Positions 1 to 8,493 of a stretch of DNA of 8,493 bases are shown piece by piece. How positions within the stretch are numbered: position 1 is the stretch's first letter; each line of letters opens with the position of its first letter. The DNA is from a virus. Lineage: Duplodnaviria; Heunggongvirae; Uroviricota; Caudoviricetes. Made by a program: the position numbers and the translations under genes. The stretch is from the IMG/VR virus record IMGVR_UViG_2541047885_000003; one strand, given 5' to 3'. The notes under the pieces are model-generated. The model saw nothing but the letters and a program-made list of their open reading frames with translations, did no database searches and had not been told where the DNA came from.

Positions 1-287
1 AGTGTTTGTGCGGCAAGTATGCCAAACCAGTCGGCGGCATTCCGCAGCCGCTTCAGGAGAGCCACGTCAGATAATGTTGCAACGTCATGGAGCTGAGCCC
101 ATGCAGTGACTTCACGTAATGACATCCCCCCGGGGCCGTAAGCCAGCCCCAGACGTAGCAGAGTTGCAGCATCACGAATTTCGCGGCGGCGGGTTAGAGC
201 CCCGGCATTACGTGCCGAAGTATCCAGTTCTTCGGGCTTACCAATATGGGCCAGAATTGCTGACCAGTTATCGTGAGAGTAATTCAT
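1..287 (-). CDS. insL: IS186 transposase, N-terminal ~95 codons (5' partial in window; no stop before the window edge)
   Basis: Minus-strand ATG at 285-287; translation MNYSHDNWSAILAHIGKPEELDTSARNAGALTRRREIRDAATLLRLGLAYGPGGMSLREVTAWAQLHDVATLSDVALLKRLRNAADWFGILAAQT matches my recollection of the IS186 InsL N-terminus. Not in the ORF track because it is truncated by the window edge. Confidence 0.8.
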   Translation of the reverse strand, partial: MNYSHDNWSAILAHIGKPEELDTSARNAGALTRRREIRDAATLLRLGLAYGPGGMSLREVTAWAQLHDVATLSDVALLKRLRNAADWFGILAAQT

Positions 288-319
288 CGGCACGTTAAAT
301 CATATCAGGCGTAATACCA

Positions 320-342
320 CAACCCTTAAGTTAGCGCTTATG
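320..342. repeat. IS186 terminal inverted repeat
   Basis: caacccttaagttagcgcttatg at the element boundary; the flank begins GGGAGAATCCC, the kind of G..C-bracketed target IS186 is known to prefer. Confidence 0.65.
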
Positions 343-397
343 GGGAGAATCCCTCGCCACCTCTGATGTGTCAGGCATCCTCAACGCACCCGCACTT

Positions 398-426
398 AAC
401 CCGCTTCGGCGGGTTTTGTTTTTTCC
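398..426 (+). terminator. Rho-independent terminator
   Basis: 7-bp GC-rich stem aacccgc / gcgggtt (398-404 / 409-415) with ttcg loop, followed by ttgttttttcc. Confidence 0.6.
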
Positions 427-496
427 TGGCATTCTGGTTTACAATTCGCACGCCAGCCTGAACAACTGGCACCTGCTGCGCCAGCAGAGACAACCG

Positions 497-775
497 ATGG
501 CGCACGATACCAAATTACACAATTCTGATGATTCTGCCGTCTTTGCCAGCAGGCACGGGCGGTGTTCCCGCACTTTCAAATCTGACTGGTTCCAGCATCC
601 CCCATGCACTGAAGAACAGGCCGAGTGGCTAATTCAGTGCTACCGCAGACACGGATACGAGATTAAGAAAGCCCTCAGCCTCGATTATCGTCACTGGATA
701 ATCTCCGTCAGGCTTCCTTACTCCGAACGCCCACCGCGTCCGTCCCGCACATTCCAGCAACGCATCTGGAGGTAA
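497..775 (+). CDS. hypothetical small protein; start uncertain (track ORF starts at GTG 368, but that would read through the terminator at 398-426; first in-frame ATG is 497)
   Basis: Only open frame in 368-775; its stop TAA (773-775) sits 1 nt before the GTG start of the next gene, which has a GGAGG Shine-Dalgarno inside this ORF's 3' end (translational coupling). No family recognised; Cys/His-containing. Confidence 0.3.
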   Translation: MAHDTKLHNSDDSAVFASRHGRCSRTFKSDWFQHPPCTEEQAEWLIQCYRRHGYEIKKALSLDYRHWIISVRLPYSERPPRPSRTFQQRIWR

Positions 776-776
776 C

Positions 777-1708
777 GTGCGGGTATTACTTCGATCTGTT
801 CTGGTACCGGAACTCGGGCTGGTGATCGTTAAGCCGGGCCGTGAATCCATGCCGGTATTCCACAATACCCGGTTACTGGTGGAGCCGGAACCGAAAAGCA
901 TGCGTAATCTGCCGTCCGGGGTCGTTCCTGCCGCTCGCCAGCCGCTGGTGGAAGACAAAACATTGCTGCCGTTTTTCAGTAACGCACGGGTGATTCGTGC
1001 TGCTGGTGGTGCTGGTGCATTGTCTGACTGGCTGTTGCGCCATATTAAATCCTGCCAGTGGCCACACGGCGATTATCATCACAGCGAAACCGTCATTCAC
1101 CGTTATGGTACCGGCGCAATGGTGTTGTGCTGGCACTGCGATAACCAGCTGCGTGACCAGACATCCGAATCACTCGAGCAACTTGCTCATCAAAACCTGT
1201 CAGCATGGATGATTGACGTCATCGGTCACGCAATAAGCGGTACGCAGGAGCGTGAATTATCTCTGGCTGAATTATCCTGGTGGGCGGTCCGCAATCAGGT
1301 GGCGGACGCGCTACCGGAAGTGGTATTACGTCGTTCGCTGGGGTTGCGTGCGGAAAAAATCCGCTCAATGTACCGTGAAAGCGACATCGTACCGGGAGAG
1401 CAGACCGCCACCAGCATACTGAAACAGCGCACAAAAAATATTGCGCCGCTGCCTCACGCCCACCAGCAACAGAACCCACCACAGGAAAAGACGGTGGTAA
1501 GCCAGCCGACGATCCCCATCACCTGATTGGTCATGGTCAGGGCGGAATGGGGACAAAATCTCACGATATTTTCACGCTACCGCTGTGTCGGGAGCATCAC
1601 AACGAGCTTCATGCGGATCCTCTGGCGTTCGAAGAAAAGCATGGTTCTCAGGTTGATTTAATTTTTCGTTTTCTTGATCACGCCTTTGCAACTGGCGTGC
1701 TTGGGTAA
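777..1708 (+). pseudogene. DUF968/YdfU-like nin-region protein with C-terminal HNH-like motif, apparently disrupted by a frameshift
   Basis: GTG 777 with GGAGG SD; 249-codon ORF ends at 1526. A second frame (open 1379-1708, no convincing start) encodes DPHHLIGHGQGGMGTKSHDIFTLPLCREHHNELH, an HNH-type signature. The frame change must lie within 1379-1523. The DUF968 assignment is from memory. Confidence 0.5.
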
Positions 1709-1720
1709 AAGAGGTGACTG

Positions 1721-2080
1721 ATGCTCATAGATTTGGTTTTACCTTACCCGCCGACGGTGAACACTTACTGGCGACGCCGTGGCAGCACATATTTTATCTC
1801 GGAGGAGGGAAAGCGTTATCGCCGGGCTGTGGCGCTTATTGTTCGCCAGCAGCGGCTGAAATTAAGCCTGTCCGGAAGGCTGGCGATAAAGGTGATTGCA
1901 GAGCCACCGGATAAGCGTCGTCGCGACCTGGACAATATCCTGAAAGCACCGCTGGATGCGCTGACGCATGCGGGAGTGTTAATGGACGATGAGCAGTTTG
2001 ATGAAATCAATATTGTACGTGGTCAGCCAGTATCTGGTGGACGGCTGGGTGTGAAGATTTACAAAATTGAGAGTGAGTGA
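1721..2080 (+). CDS. rusA: Holliday-junction resolvase RusA
   Basis: 119 aa; strong SD AAGAGGTGA 5 nt upstream of ATG; contains RRRDLDN and LMDDEQFD blocks equivalent to the acidic catalytic residues of E. coli RusA; position just upstream of Q is typical of lambdoid nin regions. Confidence 0.9.
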   Translation: MLIDLVLPYPPTVNTYWRRRGSTYFISEEGKRYRRAVALIVRQQRLKLSLSGRLAIKVIAEPPDKRRRDLDNILKAPLDALTHAGVLMDDEQFDEINIVRGQPVSGGRLGVKIYKIESE

Positions 2081-2643
2081 GCGTAAATATGATATATCCG
2101 GAAATTACAGGCAAAAGCGGCGAGCATTTACGTCTAAAAACGCTGGAAGCAGTCTGGATCCAGGGGAAATTACGGATGTGGGGGCGGTGGTCGTATATTG
2201 GCGGCGGTAAGACGGGAAATATGTTCAACCAATTACTGACCTCTAAAAAGCTGACAAAAACGGCAATTAACGAGGCGCTCCGGAGGATGAAAAAAGCTGG
2301 TCTGGACAAACCTGAACTTGAGGCTTTTTTGCGGGATATGATCAACGGCAATCAAAAAAGCTGGCTGGCACATTGTACCGATTCAGAGGCGTTAATAATC
2401 GACAGGGTTATTGGTGAAGTCCTGGCAGGCTATCCCGGGCTGCTCAATGTCCTGAGTCAGCGTTATGTGGGGCGGGGGATGACTAAGCGCAAAATGGCTG
2501 AACTGCTGAATGATGCACACCCGGAATGGAGTTTAAGAACCTGTGAAAGACGCATTGAGCATTGGCTAAAGGTGGCAGAATTTATTTTGTACAAACCAAT
2601 GGTTATGGCTTTTGGTATAGAGGAAAAAGTTATTGCTTTTTGA
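2077..2643 (+). CDS. late-gene antiterminator Q-like protein (alternative start ATG 2089)
   Basis: 188 aa ORF immediately after rusA and followed within ~80 bp by a strong intrinsic terminator, the canonical Q-PR'-tR' arrangement. Assignment rests mainly on synteny; sequence family not confirmed. Confidence 0.55.
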   Translation: MSVNMIYPEITGKSGEHLRLKTLEAVWIQGKLRMWGRWSYIGGGKTGNMFNQLLTSKKLTKTAINEALRRMKKAGLDKPELEAFLRDMINGNQKSWLAHCTDSEALIIDRVIGEVLAGYPGLLNVLSQRYVGRGMTKRKMAELLNDAHPEWSLRTCERRIEHWLKVAEFILYKPMVMAFGIEEKVIAF

Positions 2644-2720
2644 CGTAAAAACTGCTTCAATTCCGGTACGCTTCGCAAAGCTGTACCACGAGGCGAATAG
2701 CAGACATGGACATTTGAAAG

Positions 2721-2746
2721 AGCCCGCTTTTTGCGGGTTTTTTTAT
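2721..2746 (+). terminator. Rho-independent terminator, tR'-like (end of the short PR' leader transcript)
   Basis: agcccgc-ttttt-gcgggtt hairpin followed by a T7 run (tttttttat). Confidence 0.7.
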
Positions 2747-2867
2747 GCCTGAAAAACGGCACAGAACATTAAACGCGCTGGTGGTTGCGAATACCGGTCT
2801 TTCAGCTTGCTGGCTTTTCCGACAAGAGTTATTGGTATGTTACGTTAACCAGAAAAGGGAAAAAGAC

Positions 2868-3065
2868 ATGCTAAAACAGCAGGATATGACCGAAACCGCC
2901 AGAGTGGTGTTTAATGAGTTAAGCGTCACCGAACCGGCGACAGTCGGGGAGATTGCACAGAATACTTACCTTTCACGCGAACGCTGCCAGTTAATACTGA
3001 CCCAGCTTGTTATGGCGGGTCTGGCAGACTATCAGTTTGGTTGTTACAGACACCTTCAGTCCTGA
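2868..3065 (+). CDS. small (65 aa) putative winged-helix DNA-binding protein, PapI/FaeA-like pattern
   Basis: ATG 2868 preceded by AAAAGGGA SD; MLKQQDMTETARVVFNELSVTEPATVGEIAQNTYLSRERCQLILTQLVMAGLADYQFGCYRHLQS has the name-TxxEIA-helix layout of small wHTH regulators. The track ORF start at 2745 lies inside the tR' T-tract and has no RBS. Confidence 0.45.
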   Translation: MLKQQDMTETARVVFNELSVTEPATVGEIAQNTYLSRERCQLILTQLVMAGLADYQFGCYRHLQS

Positions 3066-3080
3066 AGGCTTTTTTATTTG
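3053..3080 (+). terminator. Rho-independent terminator overlapping the stop codon of the small wHTH ORF
   Basis: ccttca-gtcc-tgaagg stem-loop followed by cttttttatttg. Confidence 0.55.
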
Positions 3081-3394
3081 TGGTAAATGGGCGGCTGGTG
3101 GGTGTGGTGGTTGTTGCTTTCCCGTTGCTGAAAAAGAAAACGCCAGACTGTTAGCCGGGTATCAGTTATCTGGAGAAATTTTTAAATACCTCACAATTCA
3201 GGCGGTTGACTGTTGTCTGGTTTGCGGGGAGTTTGTTAAAAGAAACTGGCATGGTGAATCCCCCTGTGCGGAGGGGCAATCAGCAACTGGTGTTTTGTCA
3301 CCGACCCTTATCCTTTCTGTGCGGGTTCAGGTGCTGATACTGAACTCACCGGGAGGCACCCGGCATCATGCAATGGCACATAGCGCCACTCTCC

Positions 3395-3430
3395 AGCCCC
3401 TCTCCGGAGGGGCTGTTTATATTGATTTTG
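3395..3430 (+). terminator. Rho-independent terminator ending a ~330 bp non-coding stretch
   Basis: Perfect 8-bp stem agcccctc / gaggggct with tccg loop, followed by gtttatattgattttg. On the minus strand it is preceded, not followed, by the U-rich tract, so it is + strand specific. Confidence 0.5.
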
Positions 3431-3446
3431 TCAGATGTGAGTAAAC

Positions 3447-3480
3447 TCCTTATGGACTTTGTTGTTTTAGTCCATAAGGA
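3447..3480. terminator. perfect 12-bp inverted repeat (hairpin) between convergent transcription units; possible bidirectional terminator
   Basis: tccttatggact (3447-3458), 10-nt loop ttgttgtttt, agtccataagga (3469-3480); overlaps the last codons of the minus-strand ORF 3450-3785. Confidence 0.4.
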
Positions 3481-3785
3481 CATATTTGCAGAGTGCAACG
3501 GTTATTAAAGCATTCATTCAATACGTTATCTGTATTTGTAGGACATTCCTGGCTGTTTTTGATTAAATTCCAGAATGTTTTATTGAATGGTGCTACGTTG
3601 TAAATGGTTACAGGTAGCACTTTGTTATTGAGCATGATACCTGTGTGAGTCAGTGTAAATATACTTTCAGGAGGTAAGAAAGCATCCGATTGATACCAGA
3701 TTATTAATTTTATTTTACTCCATATGACTGAAAAAGATATTCCGCATGATGGCTGGATAACTGTATCAATCACAATCCACTTCAT
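3450..3785 (-). CDS. hypothetical protein (111 aa), ORFan in AT-rich island, transcribed opposite to the phage late operon
   Basis: Minus-strand ATG 3783-3785 with AAGGA SD about 6 nt upstream; five Cys in the C-terminal third (QECPTN...[16 protein letters not shown]); base composition far more AT-rich than the flanks. No family recognised. Confidence 0.4.
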
Positions 3786-3825
3786 TTAGTTTCCTTGTTT
3801 ATGTCTTGCTGGTGATGTTCTGAAA

Positions 3826-3852
3826 AGTATAAATGATATTTTTGAATGTAAA
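3826..3852 (-). promoter_or_regulatory. candidate sigma70 promoter for the minus-strand ORFan
   Basis: On the minus strand: -35 TTTACA (3847-3852), 15-nt spacer, -10 TATACT (3826-3831), about 40 nt upstream of the start codon. Spacer is short and AT-rich DNA yields chance matches. Confidence 0.25.
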
Positions 3853-4045
3853 CCATAGAGCAGAATTATTTTTCTGATGTTGTTTATTGTTTATTTAAAT
3901 GCAGGGTGGTTTATATCTCGTCTTGTAGTTTATCCATGCATATCTGCTTGATGATGAGGTTTTTATTTAAGGTATGGTTTTGTGTTTTTTCTGTATTACA
4001 TGTCAGGTATTTTAAAGAATTATTTTTCAGATGGTGGAAAGAACC

Positions 4046-6006
4046 ATGGCATTTAAACACTATGATGTTGTCAGGGCGGCATCGCCGTCAGACCTTGCGA
4101 AACGACTGACACAAAAACTGAAGGAGGGGTGGCAGCCATTTGGCAGTCCGGTGGCCATCACGCCTTATACCCTGATGCAGGCCATTGCGGCGGAAGGTGA
4201 TGTCACCACACCTGTGGTGGTGAAGCCGTCGGATGGAGAAGGCGCAGTTATCAGCACCACCAGCAACCCGGAGTATTACTTTGTTGTTGCCCTAGCCGGG
4301 CGGTCAAACGGTATGGCGTATGGTGAAGGGCTTCCGCTGCCGGAGACATATGACCGTCCGGACCCGCGTATTAAACAGCTGGCGCGTCGCAGCACTGTCA
4401 CGCCGGGTGGTGCGTCCTGTAACTACAATGACATTATTCCTGCGGACCACTGCCTGCATGATGTTCAGGATTTGAGTAAGTTTTCACACCCGAAAGCCAG
4501 CGCAGCTCAGTATGGATGCGTGGGGCAGGGATTACATATCGCGAAGAAATTGTTGCCGTTTATTCCGGCGAATGCCGGTATTCTTCTGGTTCCGTGCTGC
4601 CGTGGTGGTTCTGCATTTTTGGCGGGCGATGAAGGTACCTTCAGCGAATCCACCGGCGCAAGCGAGACCTCGGCACGCTGGGGTGTTGATAAGCCACTGT
4701 ACAAGGACCTGCTTACCCGTACTCAGGCCGCACTGAAGGCCAACCCTAAAAATATTCTGCTTGCAGTGGTCTGGATGCAGGGCGAGTTTGATTTGAAACA
4801 GGGTGCATACGCCACTCAGCCGGGGCTGTTTGATTCCATGGTGGAAAAATATCGTTCTGACCTGTCGGAATTCGGAGGTCAGTGTCTCGGGGGCTCTCCG
4901 TCATCAGTTCCCTGGATTTGTGGCGACACGACCTACTACTGGAAGCAGACTTATTCTTCGCAATACGATGCGGTGTATGGTGCATATAAGACGAAATCCG
5001 CAAAAAAATCTTCTTTGTGCCGTTTATGACGGATGAAAACGGGCGAAATGTGGGTACCAACGAGCCGTCAGAAGATCCGGATGTTGCGGATATTGGGTAT
5101 TACGGAGCCGGTGGTCGAACGGACGCCAAAACCTGGACGACGGCCGACCGTAAAACGCATTTTGGATCATGGGCACGTCGTGGGATTATTTCCGACCGTC
5201 TGGCAACGGCGATTCTTGTGCATGCCGGGAGAAACGCTGAATTCATTACCGGAAAACAGCCTGATACGGTGAAGCCCACCGGACCTTCCGGTGAAGGTAC
5301 GGAGAGAGAGCCGGAAGCCCCGGTCAGTAACCGAACCCTGATGAGTCTGCTGGCGTCCGGCGAAGACCTGGCATCACAGGGCTGGCGCTATTATCACAAA
5401 CCGGCGAGCGGAGACAATGTTAACAAAAACATTGCTGAAGCGGTGGTCAGTGATGCGGGGGCTACGGGAGGTAAGGCCCTGCAACTGAATAAACCGGAAA
5501 ACCACATCTGGTTTCTGGAGCATGATGCAGCCGGACAGGGAGTGGAGTTACTGAAGAAGGGGGGACGTGTGAGCGTACGGTTTAAGTTGCCGGGTTCACT
5601 GGTGCCGAATCAGTTTGCCCTGGGCATTTACTGGCAGTTGTCGTCCCTGCCGGAGGGAGTGACGCTGGCAGAGGAAGGCAACGACATGCTGATGTCCTTC
5701 TTCCTGCAGACGGATGCGACGAACCTGAACGCGATGCACCACAAGAAGCCGAATGCGAAGCTGGATACGTTCGGGGTCTTTGATAACGGATGGCACACAC
5801 TGGCTTTTGAGTTTGCCGGAAACAACAGCATTCAGGTGACGCCGGTACTGGATGAGAAACGGGGGACGCCGTTCACACTGGTGAAATCTCCGGCATCAGG
5901 GGCGGCGGACAAACTGCAACTGACAGGCATATCAAAGGCGGCGACATATACGCTGCTGATTGACAGTGTGAAGGTGGAAGTGAACAACGCGGATGCCGCG
6001 GCATGA
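4046..6006 (+). pseudogene. nanS: prophage sialate O-acetylesterase (NanS-p-like: N-terminal DUF1737-like region + SGNH/SASA esterase + C-terminal domain), interrupted by a frameshift at an A7 tract (5002-5008)
   Basis: Frame A 4046-5029 (MAFKHYDVVRAASPSDL..., contains the GRSNG esterase block) and frame B 5017-6006 together total ~655 codons, the size of intact NanS-p as I recall it. The frames overlap at gcAAAAAAAtc; adding one A (or removing two) fuses them into ...SAKKIFFVPFMTDENG.... Confidence 0.65.
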
Positions 6007-6142
6007 TAAAAAAAGGCCGCCAGCGGCAGGAATGGAAGCTGGCGGAGGTAATCCCAATGGAGAATGTAAAGAAAAGATGCTTTCGTATATCGGTTTTTTA
6101 AATGAAAACAGTTCTCATTGTCAACCATAACGGTAAGAAATT

Positions 6143-6325
6143 ATGACATTTATTCATCAGGTGATGCTGTACTTCTGTACGGCAGTCTGTGTTATGTATC
6201 TTCTTTCGGGTGGGTACAGGGCAGTGCGCGATTTCTGGCGCAGGCAGATTGATAAAAGGGCCGCTGAGAGAATCAGCGCCAGTCAGTCAGCCGGAAGCAA
6301 ACCCGAAGATCCGCTCATTCCGTAG
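6143..6325 (+). CDS. hypothetical small protein (60 aa) with one hydrophobic segment
   Basis: ATG 6143 with a weak RBS; N-terminal VMLYFCTAVCVMYLL looks like a single transmembrane helix. Overlaps the implausible N-terminal extension of the 6189 track ORF. Confidence 0.3.
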   Translation: MTFIHQVMLYFCTAVCVMYLLSGGYRAVRDFWRRQIDKRAAERISASQSAGSKPEDPLIP

Positions 6326-6362
6326 TCACTTTCTTGACAACACCTTTCAACGAGAAAATCCC

Positions 6363-6608
6363 ATGTCAGAAATCACATCCCTGGTCACTGCTGAGGCAGT
6401 GAAGGAAGTCCTGCGCTCTGAAGAAGTCCTGAGCGCACTGAAACAGAAACTCCGCCAGAACCTTGAGGCGCGTCTTGATGCAGAAGTGGATGCCATTCTG
6501 GATGAGCTGCTGGGCGTACCAGCGGTTCCGGAGCCGGAAGGTATCGCGGGTGACGGGAGTGCTTCAGATGGCGGTGAACCCACACCTGACAGCGACATGA
6601 TGATGTAA
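6363..6608 (+). CDS. hypothetical small acidic protein (81 aa)
   Basis: ATG 6363 (internal Met of track ORF 6189-6608); helical N-terminal half and strongly acidic Pro/Gly/Asp-rich tail ([26 protein letters not shown]). Small ORFs occupy this position between nanS-p and the holin in Stx-type prophages. Confidence 0.45.
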
Positions 6609-6684
6609 GCCTGCGCAAGGGACCATCGGTGTGTGCCGGTGGTCTTTATATTGTTGTGAGCTTCCGGATAACGGGAGACGGGGT

Positions 6685-6900
6685 ATGTACCAGATGGAAA
6701 AAATCACAACAGGTGTGTCATACACCACGTCAGCGGTGGGAACGGGCTACTGGTTCCTGCAGTTGCTGGACAGGGTTTCCCCGTCTCAGTGGGCGGCAAT
6801 AGGCGTGCTGGGGAGTCTGCTGTTTGGGCTGCTGACGTACCTGACTAACCTGTATTTCAAAATCAAAGAGGACCGGCGTAAGGCGGCGCGGGGAGAGTAA
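6685..6900 (+). CDS. S: class II holin, phage 21 S-type (pinholin-like), with possible dual start (Met1 6685 / Met4 6694)
   Basis: [71 protein letters not shown]: two transmembrane segments plus a charged C-terminus; near-identical in pattern to the S21/933W-type holins as I remember them; GGGAGA SD upstream. Confidence 0.85.
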
Positions 6901-6904
6901 AGTG

Positions 6905-7393
6905 ATGAATAAAAAATATGAACTGGTTGTTAAGGGGATAAATAATTACGGGGATAAGGTTACTGTTACTGTGAAGCCGGAAGGTGACGGGCAAGCGTCG
7001 CTGTTGTTGCCAGATGTGGCGATTAGTCTTGACCGTACTGAAGGTGCCACGCTGGAGTTTTACGAAGCTGAGGCGAAAAAGCAGGCGAAGCAGTTTTTCA
7101 TGGATGTTGCTGCCGGGTTATGTGAAGGGAACGAACCGTTGCCGGAAAAGCGCCCCATAATTTTAGAGGCGCAGGATGTGTTGATAACCTACAAAGGAAA
7201 GCTACCGGGAAGAATTACTGATGCTCTGAAGATGCCGCCGTCAACACTGCGGTCAGAAAAAGATGATGTTGAATCACGTATTGAAAAACTGGAGCGCTAT
7301 ATCGCTGAATTGAAAAAAAGCGCCCCAACAAAAAATGAGGTGCTTGCAGCAGATGAAATGAAAGAAGCTATTCTTGATCGCGCGGGCATCTAA
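6905..7393 (+). CDS. hypothetical protein (162 aa) inside the lysis cassette; possibly DUF1327/YdfR-like
   Basis: ATG 6905 (GTG 6902 also in frame) with GGAGAG SD overlapping the holin stop; beta-rich N-terminal half and a predicted coiled-coil C-terminus (ESRIEKLERYIAELKK). The family guess is from memory of the essQ-ydfR-rrrQ arrangement in the Qin prophage and is unverified. Confidence 0.55.
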   Translation: MNKKYELVVKGINNYGDKVTVTVKPEGDGQASLLLPDVAISLDRTEGATLEFYEAEAKKQAKQFFMDVAAGLCEGNEPLPEKRPIILEAQDVLITYKGKLPGRITDALKMPPSTLRSEKDDVESRIEKLERYIAELKKSAPTKNEVLAADEMKEAILDRAGI

Positions 7394-7407
7394 GCTGCGC
7401 TTCACGA

Positions 7408-7893
7408 TTGAAAGAGCATCTTCAGCGGCCTGAAGAAAAACGCCGCGATGAGCAGTTTGCTGCGTTTGACGATTATTGTCGGAAAGTGATGAGCAGAAAT
7501 CTCGCAGAGTGTTTCAGTATTCATAATGATAATTTCAGTGAGCTGGAATGGGAGTGTAACCGGCCATCCTTTGTTGTATCCGGTGATGCTGGGAAAATAA
7601 CCATCTCAGAAAATGGGAAAGTAACACCTCCATCGCACCAGCACAGTGAGGAGCTCATTGAATTTGCCATTGATTACCTGAAGAACAATAAAAAGCAGGG
7701 GCTGATGAAGCGCGTTGGCCGTTGCATGGGATATCTTCAGGTAGCCGCTGAGATTGAAGCGCTGGCCAGTGGTGCTGATAAGGATGCAATTGTGCGGGAG
7801 GCTCTTCTTCGTGATTTTAATACTCCACCCTTTAAAAAAGTGCCGGCTTACTGGCTTCATCCGGGGCTGACTTATCTTAAAGTGCGTATTTAG
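7408..7893 (+). CDS. hypothetical protein (161 aa from TTG 7408; 134 aa if ATG 7489 is used)
   Basis: Long open frame filling the gap up to the endolysin; no convincing SD for either start. No family recognised. Confidence 0.45.
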   Translation: MKEHLQRPEEKRRDEQFAAFDDYCRKVMSRNLAECFSIHNDNFSELEWECNRPSFVVSGDAGKITISENGKVTPPSHQHSEELIEFAIDYLKNNKKQGLMKRVGRCMGYLQVAAEIEALASGADKDAIVREALLRDFNTPPFKKVPAYWLHPGLTYLKVRI

Positions 7894-7929
7894 TGGGCCA
7901 GGGACAGCGGCTGAATATTTAATATATCC

Positions 7930-8463
7930 ATGAACACCAAAATCAAATACGGCCTGTCGGCTGCCGTTCTGGCGCTGATTGCCGCTGGTGCGCCTGCGCC
8001 TGACATTCTCGACCAGTTTCTGGATGAAAAGGAAGGCAACCACACCACAGCATACCGTGATGGTGCAGGTATCTGGACCATCTGCCGTGGTGCCATCATG
8101 GTGGATGGCAAACCTGTCGTTCCGGGCATGAAGTTGTCGAAGGAAAAATGCGACCAGGTTAACGCCATTGAGCGTGATAAAGCGCTGGCGTGGGTGGAGA
8201 AAAACATCAGAGTGCCGCTGACCGAACCCCAGAAAGCGGGGATCGCGTCATTCTGTCCGTACAACATTGGTCCCGGTAAGTGTTTCCCGTCGACGTTTTA
8301 CAGACGAATTAATGCTGGTGATCGAAAAGGTGCCTGCGAAGCGATTCGCTGGTGGATTAAGGACGGTGGCAGAGACTGCCGTATTCGTTCAAACAACTGT
8401 TACGGTCAGGTATCCCGTCGTGACCAGGAGAGCGCGCTGGCGTGCTGGGGTATCGACAGATAA
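7930..8463 (+). CDS. R: SAR endolysin (T4-lysozyme-type muramidase with N-terminal signal-anchor-release domain)
   Basis: N-terminal Gly/Ala-rich weakly hydrophobic segment GLSAAVLALIAAGA (SAR-like), then E-x8-D-x5-T spacing (EGNHTTAYRDGAGIWT) matching the T4 lysozyme catalytic triad; matches my memory of Stx-phage R proteins. Confidence 0.9.
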   Translation: MNTKIKYGLSAAVLALIAAGAPAPDILDQFLDEKEGNHTTAYRDGAGIWTICRGAIMVDGKPVVPGMKLSKEKCDQVNAIERDKALAWVEKNIRVPLTEPQKAGIASFCPYNIGPGKCFPSTFYRRINAGDRKGACEAIRWWIKDGGRDCRIRSNNCYGQVSRRDQESALACWGIDR

Positions 8464-8493
8464 GCAGAATATTTTGCTGAAAAATGAGGAATG

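Follow-up and report, generated by a model that had tools for sequence, protein, structure and literature searches.

The window analysed here, a stretch of 8,493 nucleotides belonging to a lambdoid prophage, begins within a copy of IS186 that very probably inserted into the conserved 3′ hairpin of a prophage-borne hok/sok locus, separating the body of hok from its fold-back-inhibition (fbi) element and its terminator. The promoter, tac, the Sok target and the hok open reading frame (ORF) are on the upstream side of the insertion sequence (IS); fbi (379-391) and the terminator (398-425) are on its downstream side, inside the window. The IS186 transposase is antisense to hok. Region 343-425 of the window is the 3′ end of the hok mRNA, cut off from the rest by the IS, and the insertion is a further instance of the known association of IS186 with hok genes, as at hokC and hokE.

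IS186 at the start of the window

The reverse complement of window 1-342 is identical to IS186A and IS186B of E. coli K-12 MG1655 at 342 of 342 positions, counted from the terminal CATAAGCGCTAACTTAAGGGTTG; as the identity is exact over 342 bases, a chance match is ruled out. A preliminary description of this DNA had recognized an IS186 end, with the transposase reading leftwards and a junction at 342, and the alignment with MG1655 confirms this. In the complete-genome collection, 2714 records match window 1-342 at 99% identity or more, and these are annotated as "IS4-like element IS421 family transposase." The region represents the transposase-proximal end of the element (minus strand) and terminates in the 23-bp inverted repeat CATAAGCGCTAACTTAAGGGTTG (320-342, minus strand). 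The same 23 bp are present at both IS ends in L002, L003, L005, L006 and L015-L017, and oppositely oriented IS186 copies align to the window from 320 onward. The first 95 codons of the InsL transposase, starting MNYSHDNWSAILAHIGKPEEL, are encoded on the minus strand (3-287), with the ATG at 287 and the reading frame leaving the window leftwards; the DNA is that of insL1 and insL2 of MG1655, both annotated as IS186/IS421 family transposase. The junction between IS and flank lies at 342/343, and the flank starts at 343 with GGGAGAATCCC.

Scaffold KE701649.1 (GCA_000460275.1; L007) contains the window as exactly one contig, at 9225-17717 and with 100% identity. Stretches of N border this contig on both sides, 695 N before it and 10 N after it (the latter at L007 17718-17727); behind the 10-N gap, window 8401-8493 appears a second time, an overlap of contigs that was left un-merged. 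The 695-N run (L007 8530-9224) lies inside the IS, directly before the start of the window, and the remainder of IS186 consists of this gap and of sequence farther upstream in the scaffold. There, the other end of the element is found in 385 bp that carry the IS186 repeat and adjoining sequence, with the left-hand 23-bp repeat at L007 8144-8166 and its right-hand counterpart at window 320-342. The middle of the element is represented by the 695 N, and InsL codons 1-95 are intact. In the closed genome L003 the equivalent IS186, annotated as frameshifted, measures 1335 bp between ATAAG and CTTAT. Within the complete-genome collection, no genome carries the whole junction together with the flank of the window at 100%.

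The insertion site

The length of the target duplication depends on the assignment of the terminal C and G: it is either GGGAGAATCC (10 bp), with IS ends CATAAG...CTTATG, or GGGGAGAATCCC (12 bp), with IS ends ATAAG...CTTAT. A previously quoted duplication of 11 bp is wrong. The right-hand copy is located on the plus strand at 343-352 of the window (GGGAGAATCC) or at 342-353 (GGGGAGAATCCC), and the left-hand copy at approximately 8133-8144 of L007. In KE701649.1 the left flank reads ...GAGGAGTAA-GAGACCAGGC-GGGGGAGAATCC(C)|(C)ATAAGCGC..., and in the window the right flank reads ...GCGCTTAT(G)|GGGAGAATCCCTCGCC. Deleting the IS together with one of the two repeat copies yields exactly the empty site of L001 and L004; in the IS-free relatives this site has the structure hokD-TAA-GAGACCAGGC-GGGGGAGAATCCC-TCGCC.... 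The preliminary description had pointed upstream of the window for the other IS end and its target duplication, and both were found there in KE701649.1, the duplication matching. By these sequences, IS186 entered by simple insertion, and neither a deletion nor a rearrangement accompanied it.

IS186 is inserted into the first hairpin of the 3′ untranslated region, 22-24 nt past the stop codon of hok. The uninterrupted hairpin, GGCGGGGGA-GAA-UCCCUCGCC, is located 10 nt after the hok stop, and in the predicted fold the IS target is at the top of the hairpin. The 3′ half of this stop-codon-proximal hairpin, which is the IS186 target, remains in the window at 343-358 (plus strand); when the IS-free transcript is folded, the predicted hairpin has a 9-bp stem. 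According to PMC6925257, which cites Chong 1985 and saiSree 2001, IS186 prefers the target 5′-GGGG(N6/N7)CCCC. Compared with the consensus as given in PMC6925257, the empty site of the prophage locus, GGGG-GAGAAT-CCCT, agrees at 7 of the 8 specified positions, and the targets in hokC and hokE agree at all 8. A search of the window for exact GGGG(N6-7)CCCC returned 0 matches, the near-consensus half-site alone being left after the insertion.

Organization of the split hok/sok locus

An ORF of 51 amino acids of the Hok/Gef family (Pfam PF01848, HOK_GEF) is located at L007 7966-8121, upstream of the window, where it adjoins the IS end; it is annotated as HokD in related genomes. The Rfam model for the sok/hok 5′ region (RF01794) matches L007 7796-7968 with 106 bits and the IS-free L001 with 120 bits. 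An Rfam scan of window 1-430 gave no match; the sok model spans only the 5′ part of the hok mRNA, which lies outside the window. By eye, an upstream ORF of 19 codons that overlaps the hok start as ATGA was identified in L007 as a candidate mok leader, and in L001 the upstream ATG shares its frame with hok.

Closure of the mRNA by pairing of tac with fbi is a defining trait of hok mRNAs, as in hok/sok of plasmid R1. The IS-free hok transcript of 423 nt folds with a predicted energy of -165.6 kcal/mol (z = -6.4 against shuffled sequences). In the IS-free L001, the first 12 nt of the transcript (tac, GGGUGCUUGAGG) are predicted to pair with CCUCAACGCACCC, which corresponds to window 379-391, in both the minimum free energy (MFE) and the centroid fold. 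The fbi element is thus placed at 379-391 on the plus strand, and its pairing with nt 1-12 is present in the predicted MFE folds of L001 and of L007 as reconstructed. Its partner tac lies upstream of the window, and the IS is now between the two. The same long-range pairing of 5′ and 3′ ends is predicted for six other hok loci after removal of IS186 in silico, including those of L015 and L016, hokC, and hokE, in which both partner sequences of the predicted pairing differ.

The window further contains an intrinsic terminator at 398-425 (plus strand), with a 7-bp GC-rich stem, the loop TTCG and a T-run; its hairpin (398-415) is AACCCGCTTCGGCGGGTT and is followed by TTGTTTTTTC. It is the sole terminator-like site in window 1-1000. 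The preliminary description had noted the flank GGGAGAATCCC and, 55 bp past the junction, a strong terminator on the plus strand, and the terminator scan bears out both. The element is located 28 nt after fbi and, in relatives that lack the IS, marks where the hok transcript ends. Because the hok transcript ends at 398-425, after fbi, the strong terminator is that of the hok mRNA. This name perhaps describes one role only, as the same element could also serve the early-right operon of the phage.

Expected consequences of the insertion

PMC3562002 states that IS186 located 3′ of gef (hokC) is thought to disrupt fbi and the normal processing of the mRNA, and that the gef mRNA of about 644 nt ends inside the IS and is still under antisense control. 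By analogy with hokC (gef)::IS186 and hokE::IS186 of K-12, hok transcripts of the prophage would run into IS186, antisense to the transposase, and end there. Deprived of fbi, they would not form the closed, translationally inert and Sok-refractory fold of the full-length mRNA, and hence would not provide a stable reservoir. As the tac-fbi closed fold would not form without fbi, competence for post-segregational killing is probably lost; if hok/sok of R1 and gef are a guide, the hok ORF would be left intact and Sok-regulated. A further effect may concern the phage genes. Transcription reading through from the early-right region in the direction of the Q-like gene (2089-2643) would have to traverse 1.3 kb of IS ahead of the orphan terminator, and by the same analogy the IS is probably polar on it.

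For annotation, the orphan terminator, like the conserved 80 bp of window 343-425, is to be read as belonging to the displaced 3′ end of a hok mRNA and not as a phage terminator of unknown role, the toxin gene upstream is best treated as probably deregulated or inactive in killing, and the presence of IS186 alone is no sign that a phage gene has been destroyed. In itself the case is of little importance, being one more example of IS186 just 3′ of hok, cutting off fbi.

Comparison with known systems

In K-12, IS186A adjoins hokC (gef) and IS186B adjoins hokE. The homologous hairpins are GGGGAGTGATCCCC in hokC and GGGGAGTAATCCCC in hokE, each with a 12-bp duplication if the IS ends are taken as ATAAG...CTTAT, and the junctions read GGGGAGTGATCCC|IS|GGGAGTGATCCCC and GGGGAGTAATCCC|IS|GGGAGTAATCCCC, respectively. 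All extracted junctions fall in the same homologous hairpin, and at hokC and hokE the IS follows the ORF and precedes the predicted fbi. The prophage locus resembles both in carrying the same IS (100% over the end present in the window) in a GC-rich hairpin homologous to theirs, 10-12 nt past the stop codon of hok, and resembles hokC also in the orientation of the element, with the transposase antisense to hok. In contrast to hokC and hokE, which belong to the chromosomal backbone of K-12, it is a hokD-type copy in a prophage, next to ead and DUF968/RusA/Q-like genes, and its target is GGGG-N6-CCCT, whereas both K-12 targets are perfect GGGG-N6-CCCC sites. PMC2654758, citing Pedersen & Gerdes 1999, names IS elements, point mutation or a large rearrangement as what inactivated the five hok loci of K-12, and does not say which of these applies to which locus.

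Once the IS is removed in silico, the locus shares with hok/sok of R1 the Rfam-defined 5′ region, the Hok ORF, the predicted tac-fbi pairing and the 3′ terminator; it differs from R1 in being located on a prophage instead of a plasmid, and in that its 3′ regulatory part is displaced by about 1.3 kb, across the IS.

The lon site takes IS186 in either orientation. Similar to the site analysed here, lon is subject to recurrent, sequence-directed insertion of IS186 at a GGGG(N6/N7)CCCC-type site with GC-rich duplications of variable length, but the promoter is destroyed at lon, whereas in the prophage the 3′ untranslated region of a toxin mRNA is split and all ORFs are intact (for lon, PMC3861542 and PMC6925257). 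With hokD (relF) of the K-12 Qin prophage, the locus has in common the Hok family and a similar neighborhood. A Qin-type locus in strain RM10410 (L017) has the order relB-relE-hokD-rem-ydfU-Q. The K-12 hokD gene has reportedly lost its sok/mok part by rearrangement; the prophage locus differs in keeping the 5′ part, with the 3′ part displaced by the IS.

Recurrence of IS186 at hok hairpins

Three 200-bp queries centered on the site were compared with 5426 complete E. coli genomes, with a coverage of at least 80%. The empty site was found in 4557 genomes, the junction in the orientation of the window in 46, and the junction in the opposite orientation in 16 (and in many plasmids at 75% coverage). 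The same type of prophage is occupied in the orientation of the window in L003 and in the opposite orientation in L002, where the left junction is one base different; other occupied contexts include a different lambdoid prophage (L015), a plasmid-borne hokD (L016) and the relBE-hokD region of Qin (L017). The occupation of several flank classes and contexts therefore points to multiple independent insertions at the same nucleotide, and the hok hairpin appears on this comparison as a recurrent hot spot for IS186 and not as the site of a one-off event.

Among the 5426 complete genomes, hokC::IS186 is present in 821 and hokE::IS186 in 1732. IS186 as a whole occupies 8572 places in 2202 genomes, and about 30% of these places are hok loci (hokC, hokE and the prophage sites), a share much of which must go back to descent and not to new events. 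As many sites are inherited, the counts of occupied sites overstate the number of independent events. The hok hairpins may hold a large share of the IS186 copies of the species, which may merit a population-genetic look.

Alternative explanations

The assembly itself could have created the structure if the IS end had been joined to the hok locus by scaffolding only and the true arrangement were different. The window does begin directly after the 695-N gap, and the IS ends are 1421 bp apart in the scaffold compared to a true IS length of 1337 bp, yet such an artefact is extremely improbable: the same 10/12-bp duplication is present on both flanks, which together rebuild the empty site exactly; closed genomes (L003; H51/H52) have a complete IS186 at the same nucleotide and in the same orientation; and the right-hand junction occurs at 100% in five independent assemblies or metagenome contigs (L008-L010, L013, L014). 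An artefact was rejected on the target duplication and the closed-genome parallels. The junction might alternatively be read from the phage side, with IS186 interrupting the early-right operon of the prophage at the edge of the nin region, a terminator of the phage tR type, an IS end that may act as an outward promoter for the nin-like genes, and an insertion that marks or causes defectiveness. Consistent with this, the IS lies between the cI/cro-replication-ead block and the DUF968-RusA-Q-like genes, in one orientation, a 1.3-kb insertion is plausibly polar on Q expression, and the same prophage bears further marks of decay. We nevertheless regard this reading as quite improbable, as the terminator comes 28 nt after fbi in a complete hok mRNA, which it brings to an end in relatives without the IS, and the phage ORFs are all uninterrupted. 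The outward promoter, suggested for IS186 ends in the preliminary description, found no support either: a sigma-70 scan of the plus strand of window 1-1000 returned no promoter-like site, the hok terminator follows directly, within 55 bp, and a literature search for an IS186 outward promoter yielded no report. The hexamers TTAAGT and GAGAAT, picked out by eye, are merely 13 bp apart and were discarded as a candidate.

An insertion of IS186 into the hok hairpin, which we thus prefer, leaves room for different reasons for its recurrence. Selection for disarming or re-tuning the toxin, as a form of domestication, could be the main cause instead of target preference. Exact consensus sites are not very rare (about 0.2 expected per 8.5 kb, or about 100 per genome by extrapolation) and hok loci nevertheless hold the share of IS186 places given above; two of the three IS186 copies of K-12 are at hok loci; and every insertion has spared the hok ORF, all of which count for selection. 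On the other hand, the hairpin itself is a perfect or near-perfect IS186 target, both orientations at the same nucleotide are a signature of target preference, IS186 is present at no more than about 1% of the hokD-type sites in prophages, and the high counts for hokC and hokE may stem from a few old events passed on by descent. Selection as the main cause is thus unlikely in our estimation. More speculative still, and rather doubtful, is the broader proposal that the stop-proximal hok hairpin is not just one of about a hundred consensus sites per genome but a privileged, perhaps structure-recognized landing pad for IS186, whose capture amounts to a recurrent, selected disarming or re-tuning of hok in prophages, plasmids and the chromosome; if true, a large share of the IS186 copies in the species would exist because of hok loci.

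Prophage context and possible decay

IS186 has the replication/ead genes of the lambdoid prophage on one side and its DUF968-RusA-Q-like genes on the other, all in the same orientation, and "edge of the nin region," as the site had been called, is acceptable as a loose description. In IS-free relatives the order is cI/cro - replication - ead-like genes - hokD - (site) - 92-aa gene - DUF968 - RusA - Q-like. Such relatives include E300010, with 99.8% identity over window 342-1502, and ATCC 25922 (and many resequenced copies of it), with 99.5% identity over window 342-8489. The IS physically separates the terminator and the genes downstream from what lies upstream, as had been proposed, but the interrupted phage gene that was to be identified by comparison with IS-free relatives does not exist: no ORF spans the empty site in these relatives, the genes to both sides of the IS are arranged in the same order as theirs, and the target duplication is clean.

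The earlier claim that the prophage is likely defective stands only in part; it does not follow from an IS that interrupts no ORF, whereas other lesions suggest decay. The DUF968/ydfU-like gene has a frameshifting deletion of 118 bp compared to all relatives examined (window 1494-1502), with a short microhomology of the GTGGT type at the join, and persists as ORFs of 249 and 53 amino acids (777-1526 and 1547-1708) instead of one of 349. A DUF1737+SASA ORF (4046-5029) and a DUF6645 ORF (5026-6006) overlap by 4 nt and represent a split gene; in ATCC 25922 the SASA/DUF6645 stretch is annotated as a single frameshifted DUF6645 pseudogene. Upstream of the window, at approximately L007 5170-6310, a second IS with IS2-like ends and rve_3/HTH_Tnp_1 fragments around a 690-N gap sits in the ead/Ea22 region and is an insertion relative to L001 and L004. 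Taken from sequence comparison, the deletion in DUF968, the split SASA/DUF6645 gene and the IS2-like element suggest decay of the prophage.

An identical truncated DUF968 protein is encoded on 17 contigs, metagenome assemblies among them. One metagenome relative (L011, an ERZ772845 contig; 178-254 and 2412-3871) has the same truncated DUF968 and a hok hairpin without the IS; its hok terminator is separated from the 92-aa gene by about 2.1 kb with coding sequences for a 216-aa protein, an HTH/Peptidase_M78 protein and Rem.

Elsewhere in the window, the Rfam model of the STnc100 small RNA matches 3220-3424 (plus strand) at full length with 133.5 bits, convergent with an iraM/PmrD-like gene (3450-3785, minus strand), and a second STnc100 match is found in an unrelated lambdoid prophage (L015 5727-5913). 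From the DUF1327/YdfR-like gene to the next ORF, window 7299-7451 has 152 bp in place of 54 bp in the prophage of ATCC 25922; YdfR is a full ORF of 162 amino acids in the window (6905-7393) and is annotated as partial in ATCC 25922.
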